28,456 nucleotides of DNA from a virus (Duplodnaviria > Heunggongvirae > Uroviricota > Caudoviricetes). Made by a program: the position numbers and the translations under genes. The stretch is from IMG/VR virus record IMGVR_UViG_3300021255_004328; one strand, 5' to 3'. The stretch's first letter is position 1; the number at the start of each line of letters is the position of its first letter. Positions 1,638-26,222 of the stretch are shown here, piece after piece. The notes under the pieces were generated by a model, which was not told the DNA's origin, searched no databases, and saw only the letters and a list, made by a program, of their open reading frames with translations.

Positions 1638-2036
1638 TTATCTTTCGAACTTAATTGAACGAGCTGTTACTCTCCAACCCTTTCCGTCTTCAGCTCTTAC
1701 GTCAAACGGATACTTGCGGCGGCGAGTATTGTAATCTTCAATTGAACAGAAGCCAAGTCCTGAAACAAACCACTTCTTGCTGAAAATGTCTTCCTTAGGA
1801 ACATCGTTCCATCTTGGATCATTTGCAACAAGATCATTCTTTGCCCACATCATCAGGCGCGGATTGATTTCCTTCTTTCCATTTTCATTGACTGCCTTTG
1901 CCTTAATTGTCATTGACAAGTCATAATCACCATAACGCATATTACTTGGTGCAAGAGTGAAGCCATACTTCTTAAGTACCTCATTTACTGCGGCATTGAT
2001 TTCCTCGTGAAGTTTTGCAGCAACTGATCTTTCCAT
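1638..2036 (-). CDS. Hypothetical protein (probable early gene)
   Basis: 132-aa ORF with AAGGAG RBS, a class I promoter upstream and a terminator downstream. Confidence 0.85.
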   Translation of the reverse strand: MERSVAAKLHEEINAAVNEVLKKYGFTLAPSNMRYGDYDLSMTIKAKAVNENGKKEINPRLMMWAKNDLVANDPRWNDVPKEDIFSKKWFVSGLGFCSIEDYNTRRRKYPFDVRAEDGKGWRVTARSIKFER

Positions 2037-2067
2037 AATTTACTCCTTATTGATTTGTTACAATAAT

Positions 2068-2096
2068 AATATAAAAAGAAATTATTAGAAGTTTAA
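2068..2096 (-). promoter_or_regulatory. Class I (early-type) promoter TTAAAC-N17-TATATT
   Basis: TTAAAC at 2096-2091, 17-nt spacer, TATATT at 2073-2068, then ATTATTGTAA. Same layout at three other sites. Confidence 0.75.
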
Positions 2097-2115
2097 ATAA
2101 ATTTATCCTCAATTC

Positions 2116-2151
2116 TCATATTTATTCCCTCCATTATAGTTCAAAAATTCG
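2116..2151 (-). repeat. 36-bp exact repeat, copy 1 (minus strand CGAATTTTTGAACTATAATGGAGGGAATAAATATGA)
   Basis: Identical to 24002..24037. Contains TATAAT, GGAGG and an ATG opening an 8-codon minigene MRIEDKFI (2119-2093). Confidence 0.95.
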
Positions 2152-2180
2152 CAGTTTTTGATTTTTGTTAATTTAATTAT

Positions 2181-2393
2181 ATGTTTAAGCTGATTATCGC
2201 CCACGGTGACATAGGAAAGCGTATCGAAAAGTATGGACCATTAGAAAGAGGTGAATTGTTTTATGATACAATTGAAGGCCTTTTACTTATAGGACTTGGA
2301 CACGGTCAGATGGATGCTTTTAAGGGTGTTTCAGTTTCTGAAGATTGCTCAAAAATAAATAATATTCCGTTGCAAATGCCGCCACACGGTTAA
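2181..2393 (+). CDS. Small protein with a tail-fibre N-terminal-like GELxYDT..LxIG motif; probably leaderless
   Basis: LERGELFYDTIEGLLLIGLG resembles the GE.G.ETDT.K.KIGDG motif at fibre N-termini. GTTAATTT-N6-ATG upstream, no SD. Confidence 0.5.
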   Translation: MFKLIIAHGDIGKRIEKYGPLERGELFYDTIEGLLLIGLGHGQMDAFKGVSVSEDCSKINNIPLQMPPHG

Positions 2394-3670: not shown

Positions 3671-3700
3671 AAGGGAGTCGGTAAAGCCGACTCTCTTTTT
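3671..3700 (+). terminator. Rho-independent terminator
   Basis: GGGAGTCGG-TAAAG-CCGACTCTC followed by TTTTT, after the clamp gene. Confidence 0.85.
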
Positions 3701-3702
3701 GT

Positions 3703-3710
3703 GTTAATAT
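3703..3710 (+). promoter_or_regulatory. GTTAATAT promoter motif (class II), leaderless geometry
   Basis: GTTAATAT-ACATTT-ATG(3717), no SD, directly abutting the terminator T-tract. Confidence 0.7.
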
Positions 3711-3716
3711 ACATTT

Positions 3717-4478
3717 ATGGTAGATTTTGATATTAAGCATTACTTAAATGAAGACGCAAACTTTGAGTATGACCCAGATAGATTTGAAGGCGTATTTTAT
3801 GGTGAGTTTGAAAATAAGCCTGAAACGGAACAAGAACTTTTAACATTACAGGCAGAATACTTGAAAACAAGAGACCAAGCTATATGGCAGAAAATGTTTG
3901 GCATTTGTTGGTCTTATATGAAGTCTTTGATACTTCAAAGAATTCAAAAGAAAGCAGAAGGCTATAAAGATCCTGAAGTTGTTGATGATAGAACAACATC
4001 TGCAACACTCGCTTTTATGAGTCAGTATTTGACAAGACCTGATTTTGAAGTTGGCACATCTTTCGCAGGTATGATGAAGTGGAAGATTGTTGAAGTTCTT
4101 TACAAAGACAAAAATCCAAAAAAGAAAGGCGGAGAACCTATATCGTTATCTTTGGAAATTTCTGATGATGGCAAAGCAACTCTTGAAGACTTGATTGCTG
4201 CAGAAGGTCCTGTGTATTCGCCTGAAGATGCAATTTGTCGAAGAAGTCCTTATGAGATTATCAATGAAATACTTGAAGAACTCGACGAAACACTTGACTG
4301 TGAAAACAGAGAATACATAAGAAACATTGTTCGTTTATACATTGTACTTTGTATGAGACATCCTAAAAACAGACACGCAAAGAAAATGTTTTTGGATAAG
4401 TGGGCAAAGAATTATAAAATCGAAAAGCTTATTGATTATGTTATGCTTGAAATAAGAAACCGTTTGTATGAGGGTTAA
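3717..4478 (+). CDS. Phage sigma70-family RNA polymerase sigma factor, divergent region 4
   Basis: Region-2-like (DQAIWQKMF...FEVGTSFAGMMKWKIVEVL) and region-3-like (ISLSLEISDDGKATLEDLI...SPED) segments, and a C-terminal helix IEKLIDYVMLEIRNRL. Confidence 0.7.
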   Translation: MVDFDIKHYLNEDANFEYDPDRFEGVFYGEFENKPETEQELLTLQAEYLKTRDQAIWQKMFGICWSYMKSLILQRIQKKAEGYKDPEVVDDRTTSATLAFMSQYLTRPDFEVGTSFAGMMKWKIVEVLYKDKNPKKKGGEPISLSLEISDDGKATLEDLIAAEGPVYSPEDAICRRSPYEIINEILEELDETLDCENREYIRNIVRLYIVLCMRHPKNRHAKKMFLDKWAKNYKIEKLIDYVMLEIRNRLYEG

Positions 4479-21737: not shown

Positions 21738-22226
21738 TTAAAAGACTTTCATTGTTGACTCAATTACATCACTTTCACCAATTAAAGTCAACCCATCAAA
21801 AAAGTCGGGGATTATATCAATAAAAAGCTTAAGTGTTGTTTCATCAACCAAAATTTTTGGTTTTTCCTTTTTGAACTTTTCATCCATCTCAACTGCAATT
21901 GAAGGGATTTCAACAATTGATTTTCTGTCAGACGGAGAAATCATCATCAAGTTGAAATACCTAAAAGGGTATTCACACACAATATAATCAAGAATACTTT
22001 TTGCCCGCATCACCTGATAATCTTTTGCAATCTTCTGAGCAGACTTCATTGCAAACTCTGCATCTGTTCTACAATAAGCATCAAACAAAGCCTGCATAGC
22101 GTCTGCGTGTTTGTTACTAAACTCATTCTCAGTACGAGCTGCCACTTCTTTCCACGCCTGTCGTATGCGGTTAGCGCGTTTAGCAATCAATTTTTCTCTA
22201 AGTTCAGTTGCTCGTTTCTCAGTCAT
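21738..22226 (-). CDS. Hypothetical protein, PxFF(D/E)G family
   Basis: Start moved to ATG 22226 (8-nt overlap with the ligase stop). Contains ILVDETTLKLFIDIIPDFFDGL. Confidence 0.8.
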   Translation of the reverse strand: MTEKRATELREKLIAKRANRIRQAWKEVAARTENEFSNKHADAMQALFDAYCRTDAEFAMKSAQKIAKDYQVMRAKSILDYIVCEYPFRYFNLMMISPSDRKSIVEIPSIAVEMDEKFKKEKPKILVDETTLKLFIDIIPDFFDGLTLIGESDVIESTMKVF

Positions 22227-23289
22227 CTGCAAGCCCTTCAATATGTGGGATGATCTCACCGCGTTTTACAATCTTTACTTTTGAGCCAATCTCAATTCCA
22301 CGAGCAGCAAGCCATTTTGTATTTGAACAAGAAGCTCTTTTTACTGTTGTTCCGTTCAACTCAACTGGCTCAATAAGAGCAACTGGGCTGAAATACTTTC
22401 CTGACTGAGACCAATCAAAACCAATAACTGTTGCAACTGCAACATCAAGTTCAAACTTGATTGCACAACTGTTCTTTGGTGTTCTGTTCTTAAGGTCTTC
22501 GTAATCAATTACTGCAGGCTTTACAACTACGCCATCAATATCATATTCAATGTTTTCACGGTTTTCATACTGTGAAGTTCTAAACTCAAATGCTTCCTCA
22601 ACAGAAGAAACTTTCTTGAAAGCAGGGATTTCAAAACCGTTGCAAACAAGATACTTAAGTTTGTCTTCTTCAGTTGTAATGAATTTCTTTTCAGCAGTTT
22701 CCTGCATATCGTAGGCAACAAAGTTGAGGTTGTCAAGTTCTGAACCGTCAAGATGTTTCATAATTCCTGCTGCGGCATTGCGGCAGTTCTTCATCTTGTC
22801 TTTGTAGTTTTTATTGAACATTGAGTGAGACATCAAGATTTCGCCACGAATTGAACCTGTAAGAGGCGGGTTTACACAATCAAGCTGAACACCTTTTACA
22901 AGCTTTGCATTTTCTGTAATGTCATCGCCTTCAAAACCTGTTCCACGAGTTACTGCCTGAACAAGTTTTCCGTTGCGGTATTTAAGTTCAATTCCTGCAC
23001 CGTCCATCTTCTGTTCCATCATATAAATGCCTGGGTGCTTTTTGAACCAATCTTTGAACTCTTCTTCGTTCTTACATTTTGCAAGAGTACCTGTAACCAA
23101 GTCGTGTTTTGCTTTTGGGAAGCCTTCAACGTGGTCATCATAGGTTACTGTATCAACATAAGTTGGGTCAAGAGTTTTAAGTTCATTGACAAGCTGGTCG
23201 AACTCCTTATCTGACATAATAGGATTTGCTTCGCCGTAAGCCTTTGAAGCTTCTTCGATCTTTGCTTTAAGTTCGTCAATTCTTGCCAT
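22219..23289 (-). CDS. ligA: NAD-dependent DNA ligase, short form (Ia + adenylation + OB domains only)
   Basis: Domain Ia PIMSDKEFDQL, motif I EQKMDG, TRGTGFEGDDIT, IRGE, YDIDGVVVK, AIKF and OB KRGEIIPHI. Stops 6 residues after the OB motif, with no Zn finger, HhH or BRCT. Confidence 0.92.
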   Translation of the reverse strand: MARIDELKAKIEEASKAYGEANPIMSDKEFDQLVNELKTLDPTYVDTVTYDDHVEGFPKAKHDLVTGTLAKCKNEEEFKDWFKKHPGIYMMEQKMDGAGIELKYRNGKLVQAVTRGTGFEGDDITENAKLVKGVQLDCVNPPLTGSIRGEILMSHSMFNKNYKDKMKNCRNAAAGIMKHLDGSELDNLNFVAYDMQETAEKKFITTEEDKLKYLVCNGFEIPAFKKVSSVEEAFEFRTSQYENRENIEYDIDGVVVKPAVIDYEDLKNRTPKNSCAIKFELDVAVATVIGFDWSQSGKYFSPVALIEPVELNGTTVKRASCSNTKWLAARGIEIGSKVKIVKRGEIIPHIEGLADD

Positions 23290-23310: not shown

Positions 23311-23339
23311 AATATAAAGAAAAGAAGCCGTAAGTTTAA
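23311..23339 (-). promoter_or_regulatory. Class I (early-type) promoter TTAAAC-N17-TATATT
   Basis: TTAAAC at 23339-23334, 17-nt spacer, TATATT at 23316-23311, then ATTATTGTAAGGAG. Confidence 0.75.
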
Positions 23340-23672
23340 TTACGGCATCTCAAAAATGTCAATTTTTTCAAAGTATTTTGGGTCGTAATTATCGACTAAC
23401 CATTGAATACAGTCTTTAGGCATAAAAACCGCGTCCATTTGCTCCATATACGCTTTATAACTATCAAGGTGCAAACAACCATTATCCCATCTGTCCGCGA
23501 AACGGTCGCCTCTTTCATCATAGATTTTTGTATCATTTGGATTGTCAGGGTCGGGTTTAATTTGCCACCTTAAAGTAAGTATCGACTTATGAGCCCAATC
23601 ATCGCCATAACAGGCTTTCAGGATTTTCGCAAATTCGCTCTGCGGCTCCGTATATCGCGGCATCCCAGTCAT
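23340..23672 (-). CDS. Hypothetical protein, PxFF(D/E)G family
   Basis: Ends VFMPKDCIQWLVDNYDPKYFEKIDIFEMP. The 5' 74 nt overlap the FlgM-like ORF in another frame. Confidence 0.7.
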   Translation of the reverse strand: MTGMPRYTEPQSEFAKILKACYGDDWAHKSILTLRWQIKPDPDNPNDTKIYDERGDRFADRWDNGCLHLDSYKAYMEQMDAVFMPKDCIQWLVDNYDPKYFEKIDIFEMP

Positions 23673-23718
23673 AAGTACCGTCCTTAATTGCTTTCTTAAT
23701 CATTTCAACCTTGCTCAT
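23599..23718 (-). CDS. FlgM-like anti-sigma-factor peptide (39 aa)
   Basis: Not in the ORF track. MSKVEMIKKAIKDGTYDWDAAIYGAAERICENPESLLWR, with TGATG coupling and GGAGG RBS. KVxxIKxAIxxGTYxxD...AERI matches the sigma-binding C-terminal half of FlgM. Confidence 0.65.
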   Translation of the reverse strand: MSKVEMIKKAIKDGTYDWDAAIYGAAERICENPESLLWR

Positions 23719-23939
23719 CAGTTTCCTCCCATAGCTTCTTTGATAAAGCCATATATTTCCTCAACTGTTGCATCAACAAGCAAGTCATTTCCGTTCTGAA
23801 AATAAACCCAACTCTTTTTATCATCGTCCTCATCAGGCTCAATTGCTGTTACCCAAGGCAAGAAAATCAACTTACCGCCGATAAGTAAAATACCTCTTGT
23901 TGGGTCAGTTGATTGAAAAGTACTGGTAAATGGTGGCAT
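23718..23939 (-). CDS. FlbD/SwrD-like small protein
   Basis: VTAIEPD...SWVYFQNGNDLLVDATVEEIYGFI parallels the FlbD IE.IE..PDT.ITL.NG....V.ES.EEV...I pattern. AAGGAG RBS. Confidence 0.5.
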   Translation of the reverse strand: MPPFTSTFQSTDPTRGILLIGGKLIFLPWVTAIEPDEDDDKKSWVYFQNGNDLLVDATVEEIYGFIKEAMGGN

Positions 23940-23961
23940 ATAAATCTCCTTTACAAGAATA

Positions 23962-23969
23962 ATATTAAC
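23962..23969 (-). promoter_or_regulatory. GTTAATAT promoter motif (class II) upstream of the FlbD-like/FlgM-like operon
   Basis: Exact intergenic motif followed by TATTCTTGTAAAGGAG. Confidence 0.6.
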
Positions 23970-24001
23970 TTAAAAACAAATATAAATTTATTCTTATCTT
24001 T

Positions 24002-24037
24002 TCATATTTATTCCCTCCATTATAGTTCAAAAATTCG
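24002..24037 (-). repeat. 36-bp exact repeat, copy 2
   Basis: Identical to 2116..2151. Its ATG opens the minigene ATG AAA AGA TAA (24005-23994). Confidence 0.95.
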
Positions 24038-24040
24038 TTT

Positions 24041-24772
24041 TTACAGTTGAATTTCTTCTGCGCCTTTAAGAATATAAATCCAACCCTTTTCCAAGTTTTC
24101 AGTTGTAGAGTCAATAACTGCATCTTCAACATTTGGACAAACCCAGCCAGTTTTCATATCAACAATATCGTTTCTTGTCAAAGTAACGATTTTTGTTTTT
24201 GTGCCTTTTCCCTTTTTAACTGCAAGGAATGTGTACTGAGGAACTGGGCGGCGCATATTCTGCTTTACAGCAACAATACCGACTTTATTATAACGTTCCC
24301 ATTCATCAGAACCAAAGTCCCAACCTGCAGGCATTTTGTTATTAAAGCCGTTATCTTTAAGTTTTTTGTCTTCGTCTTTTGTTACGAGGCAGACGTGATA
24401 GTACTTATCAAAAAATGCTTTTGCTGTTTCTTCTGACTTTGAAATTTTGTCATAATTTTTCAAAAGGATTTCACTAAGAACCGCACAGGGTACACAATGC
24501 TCCCAAGTTGTATCTGTTCCAAAAACAAGGTCAATCCCATTTGCTTCAGCATCGAGAACTGCTTGTGATTTATATTCAACTGTTACATCTTTTGAATAAA
24601 GACGCTGTGAAGGATAAAGTCCATCAGGATGTACACGATAAGCATACGAACGAATAAGTGAACCAATTTTACTTTCACCTAAAACATCAGCTGATGTCTT
24701 AAGCCAATCAACAAATTCTTTAGCGGGTAAATCACCTGCAAGAGCTTTAGGGTTATATTTCTTTCCTTTCAT
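24041..24772 (-). CDS. Putative HNH / His-Me-finger-like nuclease-fold protein
   Basis: WEHCVP followed by CLVTKDEDKKL...NKMPAGW...DEWERY, an EHxxP beta-beta-alpha-Me-like layout. Confidence 0.45.
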   Translation of the reverse strand: MKGKKYNPKALAGDLPAKEFVDWLKTSADVLGESKIGSLIRSYAYRVHPDGLYPSQRLYSKDVTVEYKSQAVLDAEANGIDLVFGTDTTWEHCVPCAVLSEILLKNYDKISKSEETAKAFFDKYYHVCLVTKDEDKKLKDNGFNNKMPAGWDFGSDEWERYNKVGIVAVKQNMRRPVPQYTFLAVKKGKGTKTKIVTLTRNDIVDMKTGWVCPNVEDAVIDSTTENLEKGWIYILKGAEEIQL

Positions 24773-26176: not shown

Positions 26177-26205
26177 AATATAAAGTCAGTTTAATGAAAG
26201 TTCAT
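26177..26205 (-). promoter_or_regulatory. Class I promoter variant ATGAAC-N17-TATATT
   Basis: Same 17-nt spacing and downstream ATATTTGTAAGGAG as the other three copies. Confidence 0.65.
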
Positions 26206-26208
26206 TTT

Positions 26209-26216
26209 GTTAATAT
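26209..26216 (+). promoter_or_regulatory. GTTAATAT promoter motif (class II), leaderless geometry
   Basis: GTTAATAT-ATTTTT-ATG(26223), no SD. Confidence 0.7.
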
Positions 26217-26222
26217 ATTTTT

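Follow-up and report, generated by a model that had tools for sequence, protein, structure and literature searches.

A putative minimal FlgM-like anti-sigma protein encoded by an uncultivated jumbo phage

Main finding

The 28,456-nucleotide (nt) DNA of the IMG/VR virus record IMGVR_UViG_3300021255_004328 (Caudoviricetes; this entire stretch is hereafter referred to as the window) carries a 39-codon open reading frame (ORF), pep39, on its minus strand. pep39 is almost certainly a real gene, and judged from sequence comparison its product is very probably homologous to the C-terminal part of the anti-sigma factor FlgM, a module of two helices. We propose, with a probability of roughly 0.5, that pep39 is a minimal, cytoplasm-confined FlgM derivative that clamps the flagellar sigma factor of the host (FliA/SigD) or a close group-3 relative. 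The features discussed below are listed in Table 1.

Evidence that pep39 is a gene

pep39 starts with the ATG at positions 23718-23716 and ends with the TGA at 23601-23599; its translation is MSKVEMIKKAIKDGTYDWDAAIYGAAERICENPESLLWR. A preliminary description of the window had claimed from the sequence that this ORF possesses a GGAGG ribosome-binding site and is coupled to the upstream gene p73 through a TGATG junction, and that it is partly overprinted on the next gene, p110, where the DNA is unusually rich in G+C. On reading the sequence, all these features were found exactly as claimed: the stop codon of p73 (TGA, 23720-23718) and the start codon of pep39 have one A in common, and the G+C content of the 74-nt overlap between pep39 and p110 is 51%, compared with 37% for the whole window. 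In some assemblies pep39 has been called by public gene callers (P0001 and P0002), and it illustrates well how standard annotation mostly misses real, conserved genes of fewer than 40 codons.

Three related phage contigs carry an intact copy of the ORF, namely a close relative (100% amino acid identity), IMGVR_UViG_3300028832_000157 (87%), and JAZNWZ010000130.1 (hereafter C130). A Shine-Dalgarno (SD) site precedes it in every context (GGAGG in locus L004, AAGGAG in C130, and GAGGAG in L008), and four different upstream contexts were found. In L004, p73 and pep39 overlap by 14 nt as the result of a one-base deletion; in C130, an additional ORF for a Cys-rich protein of 58 amino acids (aa; G002:C130:263745-263920, minus strand) lies between p73 and pep39; and in two contigs from rumen RNA libraries, homology to the window ends at position 23725. 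A programmed frameshift or a p73-pep39 fusion was ruled out because the junction is different in every relative.

L008, a gut-metagenome contig, contains a free-standing homologue (MTKVELIKKAIKDKTYDWEAAIEGAAERILEHPESLLWR) that is preceded by the GAGGAG site and followed, without overlap, by a gene for an unrelated HExxH protein. Over the whole of pep39, the window and L008 show 18.9 synonymous and 14.1 non-synonymous differences, corresponding to proportions of 0.79 at synonymous sites (pS) and 0.15 at non-synonymous sites (pN), and the two proteins remain 82% identical while synonymous sites are saturated. Within the part that overlaps p110 in the window (23 codons), pS and pN are 0.89 and 0.18, respectively. 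Because pN is low over these codons and there is no second frame in L008, the C-terminal half of pep39 is conserved as a protein. Purifying selection therefore acts on the pep39 frame itself, and none of the outcomes that the preliminary description had named as refuting its claim was observed. Since other genes of the pep39 family have no overlapping gene, the N-terminus of p110 is the younger, overprinted frame, and the region offers an example of overprinting in which the p110 N-terminus was created over the 3' half of pep39 in this lineage. The seven changes between the window and L004 within the overlap, roughly three synonymous and four non-synonymous in either frame, do not tell the two frames apart. 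Contigs from rumen metatranscriptome libraries also span pep39 (X1 is identical, and X2 and X6 are from a variant); such contigs are uninformative about transcription, strand, and translation, and the libraries may contain DNA.

These data leave very little probability for the view that pep39 is not a gene but a frame that happens to be open across the intergenic spacer and the 5' end of p110 and resembles FlgM by coincidence. Such a view would fit the shortness and heavy overlap of the ORF, its score under the Pfam cut-off, and the substitutions between close relatives, which favour neither frame. It is at odds, however, with the free-standing homologue retaining 82% protein identity at saturated synonymous sites, with the occurrence of approximately 20 protein clusters of the family in unrelated contexts, and with the SD site found in all contexts.

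Distribution and conservation of the pep39 family

When 1.84 billion representative proteins were searched exhaustively with a profile (E≤1e-3), 25 matches were obtained, approximately 20 of which are metagenomic proteins of 36-68 aa with the domain at the C-terminus. Several of the longer calls evidently have mis-called starts, and the true lengths are likely to be about 39-45 aa. The family consensus is KVxxIKxAIKxGTYDWxxAIExAAxxIxENPESLLWR, and the proteins end in NPESLLWR. I11 and A21 are invariant, and K8, Y16, I29 (22/23 members), P33, L36, and W38 are nearly invariant.

Neither blastn nor tblastn gave a match in 50,697 deposited phage genomes, and among 401 Clostridia genomes, a true member was found only on the phage contig C130. 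It is unannotated in PHROGs, where no match was obtained for pep39, p73, p110, or their neighbours, and bears only a faint tag in the precomputed matches of Pfam. Four further contexts (L008, L050, L052, and L056) are phage-like and contain many small unknown ORFs and genes for a methylase, an AAA ATPase, a PD-(D/E)XK nuclease, and a ligase BRCT fragment; no conserved neighbour gene of the family members was found in these four contexts.

Three other arrangements were observed around pep39. In the two related phage contigs L005 (2941-3093) and L006, the entire accessory block between the beta-CASP nuclease and ligase genes is missing, pep39 included, and only a 50-aa remnant of p110 stays; the block is therefore dispensable. 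In L008, the free-standing pep39 lies approximately 650 nt upstream of a gene for a membrane GGDEF diguanylate cyclase and near a gene for an HD_4 protein (loci L008:882-2012 and L049:4019-5407). In L009 (1709-2257), a 182-aa ORF (P0003) next to a GH25 muramidase gene has two CW_7 repeats fused in frame to the C-terminal 30 residues of pep39. Homology of L009 to the phage starts inside pep39, and the CW_7 fusion was taken for a natural recombination joint or a chimera of the assembly, not for an ancestral long form.

Homology to FlgM

When pep39 alone was compared with Pfam, FlgM (PF04316) was the sole match (21.0 bits, E=4e-4), residues 2-20 aligning with profile positions 28-46 of 55; the sole match in NCBIfam was TIGR03824 (18.9 bits). 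Genuine FlgMs score 22.5-35 bits with the Pfam model in flagellated relatives (the family of the metagenome-assembled genome [MAG] in which C130 was binned) and 40-76 bits in other Clostridia. Because the FlgMs of these relatives score no higher than 35 bits, a score of 21 bits for one-third of the domain is unremarkable. Among the 23 family members, 14 match Pfam FlgM at E≤0.1 (best, 9.6e-7), and any other family is matched by at most two members. In a profile search of PDB with the family profile, the top two matches were both FlgMs (9wsf_B, E=0.007, and 1rp3_B from Aquifex, E=0.15).

A six-frame search of the 401 Clostridia genomes with the family profile gave matches in eight genomes, comprising eight ORFs besides that of C130. 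Seven of these eight are bona fide FlgMs of 93-103 aa with Pfam FlgM scores of 54-73 bits. In a BLASTP alignment with one of them, pep39 residues 3-36 correspond to residues 62-93 of the 95-aa FlgM with 14/34 identities and one 2-residue gap. The protein thus consists of the sigma-binding end of FlgM alone and lacks the export region, as the preliminary description had inferred.

Profile-profile comparison by hhalign gave a match across both helices: the family alignment A4 and an alignment of 30 clostridial FlgMs, chosen by Pfam score alone, matched over 34 columns with a probability of 95.6% (E=1e-8). The probability was 95.7% with a set of 12 FlgMs that is biased, since seven of them had been picked by A4 itself, and 41.5% with five divergent FlgMs. 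With profile A2, built from the four closest copies, FlgM ranked second in PDB at E=0.92, and the comparison with the five divergent FlgMs gave 8%; the FlgM signal became clear only once the wider family had been found. The FlgM profile match that the preliminary description had named as a check was thus obtained, with the single copy remaining sub-threshold. A Foldseek search of PDB with the 39-aa model returned nothing meaningful, the helical hairpin being too small for such a search.

Structural model and predicted sigma factor binding

In the sigma28-FlgM complex of Pseudomonas aeruginosa, published in 2026, FlgM (PaFlgM) forms two helices with a linker of six residues between them. Helix 1 contacts sigma2 through its first part and packs on L200, L204, and L210 of sigma4 through its latter part (V77, I80, and I84); helix 2 (V96, A97, L100, and L101, then E104 and R107) lies in a sigma4 groove and contacts all three sigma domains (PMC12784957). 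pep39 starts just before the residue equivalent to V77, and its V4, I7, and I11 align with V77, I80, and I84. Past a two-residue insertion, A25, A26, I29, and C30 correspond to V96, A97, L100, and L101. The positions equivalent to the sigma4 contacts are hydrophobic or small throughout the pep39 family.

The AlphaFold2 model of pep39, generated from the family alignment, is a hairpin with a predicted local distance difference test (pLDDT) score of 93.7, consisting of helices at residues 3-13 and 18-31 separated by a GTYD turn and followed by a short helix at 33-36. For complex prediction, the family alignment was paired with an alignment of 34 clostridial FliA sequences and compared with three controls; 58 of 80 solved complexes attain the mark applied, compared with 2 of 110 mismatched pairs. 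The predicted pep39-FliA complex reached an ipSAE of 0.60 (0.60, 0.56, and 0.61 in individual runs), compared with 0.00 for the best of the three controls, and the runs showed at least 78% contact agreement and a partner pLDDT of at least 76. The complex with FliA suggested as a check by the preliminary description therefore passes above the controls, in a weak band that does not establish binding. Taken as a whole, it is reasonably likely that pep39 binds domain 4 of some sigma factor, and the odds that its target is the host sigma28 or SigD are close to even, if slightly short of it.

Host and phage context

The window belongs to a jumbo phage that has not been cultivated. Among IMG/VR records, the nearest shows 97% identity in this region, has a length of 23 kb, and is rated 8% complete. 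The window is also colinear, at 80-94% identity, with the 306,108-bp contig C130, which has been binned in a MAG of 'Candidatus Fimenecus' (G002). No host is given for this phage by Li et al. (2024), and the binning of the phage contig, weak evidence as it is, is the only host hint.

GGAG or GAGG sites precede at least 25 of the 41 genes in the window. C130 encodes a canonical flagellin of 285 aa (L015:1060-1917, equal to G002:C130:75407-76261) that matches Flagellin_N at E=1e-40 and is 47-54% identical to Clostridia flagellins; its gene adjoins one for an HNH-type endonuclease and is the sole flagellin gene in the MAG. The use of SD sites, the clostridial type of the FlgM fragment, and the flagellin of C130 point to a flagellated, SD-using host of the Firmicutes type. 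One relative fragment links the 3' end of pep39 to CW_7 and GH25 cell-wall genes, which are typical of Gram-positive phages. In sampled Clostridia, FliA and FlgM were found in 38 and 37 of 101 genomes, respectively.

Sigma28-type promoters (TAAA-N14-17-CCGATA) number zero in the window and two in C130, where two are expected, and none precedes the flagellin gene of C130. Since the phage shows no excess of such promoters, the purpose of targeting sigma28, if it is targeted, would be shut-off in the host and not the timing of phage genes.

The preliminary description had also considered that pep39 might time a sigma factor of the phage itself, encoded at 3717. The 253-aa product of this gene contains no Pfam domain and gives no match to the hidden Markov models (HMMs) of Sigma70_r2 and Sigma70_r4, and the HMMs of FliA, Sigma70_r2, and Sigma70_r4 found no matches on the related phage contig. 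The top Foldseek matches of its AlphaFold2 model (pLDDT 68.6) are almost all sigma factors, with a best E of 0.03 and none at E≤0.001, and the model superimposes on the sigma2 domain of SigC with a template modelling (TM) score of 0.72. By its predicted fold, the protein is probably a very divergent sigma-70-family factor.

Proposed function and alternative explanations

In the proposed mechanism, of which the binding to a sigma factor, the identity of that factor, and the benefit to the phage are the parts that we infer, pep39 would be made from the p73-pep39-p110 transcription unit, and its two helices, like those of FlgM in the solved sigma28-FlgM complexes, would pack their hydrophobic faces on domain 4 of the host FliA/SigD or a close group-3 relative. 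The bound sigma factor would be kept off RNA polymerase, and the genes of its regulon would stay silent until the infection ends. The signal for FlgM export through the flagellar type III apparatus resides in the N-terminal region, as in Salmonella; pep39 would not be secretable, so that the normal relief of FlgM inhibition would not apply. The phage might benefit through the loss of flagella as a receptor, the saving of resources, or the control of SigD-dependent autolysins.

Several observations weigh against this proposal. No flagellar genes were found near the family members in the window, L008, L050, L052, or L056. The pep39 copy of the window scores under both curated FlgM cut-offs (25 bits for PF04316 and 40.75 for TIGR03824). 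The NPESLLWR C-terminus has no counterpart in FlgM and is the most conserved segment of the family. Free FlgM is disordered, whereas the pep39 monomer was modelled as a confident fold. The FlgM segment that contacts sigma2 is missing, and the affinity of pep39 could be too low as a result. The pass in the complex prediction falls in a weak band, since just 7 of the 80 solved complexes reach the mark at 0.60 or less, as do both of the passing mismatches; in addition, sigma28-FlgM complexes have been solved, so this pass may reflect memory of them or restate the sequence likeness. In the MAG holding C130, FliA, FlgM, FliS, FliW, and CsrA were not found, and FliA exceeds the cut-off in only 3 of 61 genomes of the family of that MAG.

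Two explanations accept the descent of pep39 from FlgM and differ in its present partner. The protein may no longer be an anti-sigma factor, being instead a small helical protein whose LLWR tail binds some other host or phage partner. We regard this as unlikely, while noting that it agrees with the particularly strong conservation of the tail that FlgM lacks (P33, L36, and W38 being nearly invariant), with the prediction that the monomer folds alone, with the lack of a conserved neighbour and of a flagellar context, and with the weakness of the support that the FliA complex prediction provides. On the other side, the FlgM-like helix positions are as conserved as the tail (I11 is invariant, and K8, Y16, and I29 are nearly so), these positions matter for sigma28 contact in the solved complexes, and no search points to an alternative partner.

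Somewhat less probable still is a retargeting of the FlgM-derived protein to domain 4 of a different sigma factor, either the phage protein at 3717..4478, in which case pep39 would time middle or late transcription of the phage, or a host group-3 sporulation sigma of the sigmaF/G type. The latter are the closest relatives of sigma28 in Clostridia, and the MAG G002, lacking FliA, contains several group-3 or sporulation-type sigma factors scoring 105-117 bits on the FliA model. Retargeting is also consistent with the conserved 253-aa phage protein, which has weak RpoD region-3 matches and whose model finds almost nothing but sigma factors, with the absence of an excess of sigma28-type promoters in the phage, and with the conserved NPESLLWR tail, a novelty that could confer a new specificity. 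The hydrophobic positions kept in pep39, however, are those that contact sigma28 specifically; the 253-aa protein has no detectable match to the Sigma70_r2/r4 HMMs, so that any FlgM-type docking site on it is putative; and the binning on which the argument from the MAG depends is weak evidence for the host.

Under the proposed clamping of FliA/SigD or a close relative, a broader and more tentative interpretation is that pep39 represents the first phage-encoded anti-sigma-28, a non-secretable, 'dominant' FlgM that would silence the late flagellar, chemotaxis, and autolysin regulon of the host of a rumen jumbo phage (or, in non-flagellated clostridial hosts, might be retargeted to sporulation sigma factors) as part of a phage programme for manipulating motility and signalling. 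Such a wider programme is suggested by the flagellin gene of the related contig and by the GGDEF cyclase gene near the L008 homologue. If pep39 binds sigma28, it would define the minimal natural unit of FlgM that suffices for inhibition, and geneticists could use it as it stands to turn off the late genes of the flagellum. A new way in which phages control motility would also come to light, whether this serves receptor removal against flagellotropic superinfection, resource saving, or the control of SigD-dependent autolysins.

Transcription unit and neighbouring genes

Table 1. Features of the window related to pep39 and its proposed function.
Feature	Coordinates	Strand	Basis or remarks
pep39, mini-FlgM-like protein	23599..23718	-	39-codon ORF; purifying selection, family, FlgM matches, AlphaFold2 model
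SD sequence of pep39 (GGAGG)	23725..23729	-	6 nt 5' of the ATG; read from the sequence
Dual-coding overlap, 74 nt	23599..23672	-	pep39 codons 16-39 and stop versus p110 codons 1-25
p110, 110-aa gene	23340..23672	-	Own AAGGA site at 23685-23681, inside pep39
p73, 73-aa gene 5' of pep39	23718..23939	-	TGATG translational coupling, in this phage only
Promoter-like repeated element 5' of p73-pep39-p110	23953..24046	-	Second copy at 2028-2183 (-); at least nine copies in the 306-kb contig C130
Intrinsic-terminator-like hairpin and T-run	23327..23346	-	Directly after p110, at the end of the unit
Conserved 253-aa phage protein, sigma-like	3717..4478	+	Weak RpoD region-3 matches, fold match; 37 homologues

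In relatives of the phage, p73 is replaced or set apart from pep39. The assignment of p73 to FlbD/SwrD (PF06289) was not supported, as p73 had no Pfam match at E≤10 and an hhalign probability of 0.2%; the PF06289 profile found nothing at E≤1 on the related phage contig, and the real FlbDs of flagellated relatives score 76-87 bits. p110 has no match in Pfam, PHROG, or NCBIfam, and its C-terminal motif is common to paralogues elsewhere in the window.

The repeated element upstream of the unit is approximately 90 nt long and is found upstream of genes. It contains a TATAAT sequence, then a GGAGG site with a mini-ORF of 3-8 codons, and then GTTAATAT approximately 24 nt before the ATG. This repeat is probably one class of phage promoter together with its leader. 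Plus-strand genes that have no SD site (those starting at 2181, 3717, and 26223) show a different arrangement, in which a motif of the TTGTTAAT(A/T)T type is located immediately 5' of the gene (2160-2180, 3696-3716, and 26202-26222, respectively). This arrangement suggests leaderless transcripts from a -10-like element, and the sigma-like gene at 3717 is among the genes so preceded.

Beside p110 lies a gene for an NAD-dependent ligase (22219-23289, minus strand) of 356 aa, which comprises only the adenylation and OB domains. Near another pep39 homologue, a separate protein of 282 aa (L052:4080-4928) corresponds to the zinc-finger/HhH/BRCT part, which suggests that the ligase is split in phages carrying members of the pep39 family.

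Comparison with known systems

No report of a phage FlgM-like protein, or of a captured and trimmed host anti-sigma factor directed against an alternative sigma factor, was found in full-text literature searches, in agreement with the preliminary description, whose author knew of no characterised phage FlgM mimic. The housekeeping sigma factor is a known target of phages, which silence or redirect it. Among small phage proteins, T4 AsiA (on region 4 of sigma70) and gp39 of the Thermus phage P23-45 (PMC3950348) have been shown to act on sigma domain 4, the action proposed here for pep39. AsiA and gp39 target the housekeeping sigma factor, whereas pep39, which descends from an anti-sigma factor of the host, would act on an alternative one; no sequence or fold relationship was found between these two proteins and pep39.

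RsiG of Streptomyces, which sequesters the sigma28-family factor WhiG, resembles pep39 in being a helical hairpin (PMC7005675), as do other hairpin anti-sigma factors of sigma28-type factors, but RsiG is far larger and needs cyclic di-GMP (c-di-GMP), and no homology to pep39 was detected. The GGDEF cyclase gene near the L008 homologue parallels the role of c-di-GMP in RsiG; this parallel may be coincidental.

The closest known system is FlgM itself (PF04316/TIGR03824; 1RP3/1SC5 from Aquifex and 9WSF from P. aeruginosa), with which pep39 shares the pattern KV..IK.AI..G.Y.vD, followed by.A.k(I/L)(I/L). FlgMs are 85-110 aa long and associated with flagellar genes (flgN/flgK and fliA), whereas pep39 has 39 aa, begins at the equivalent of FlgM residue ~60, and is phage-encoded without flagellar neighbours. 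It lacks the N-terminal two-thirds of FlgM, and with them both the export region and the sigma2-contacting segment of the helix, and has two residues inserted where the second helix starts. pep39 is thus a truncated, phage-borne form of the known FlgM anti-sigma family that had not been described previously.

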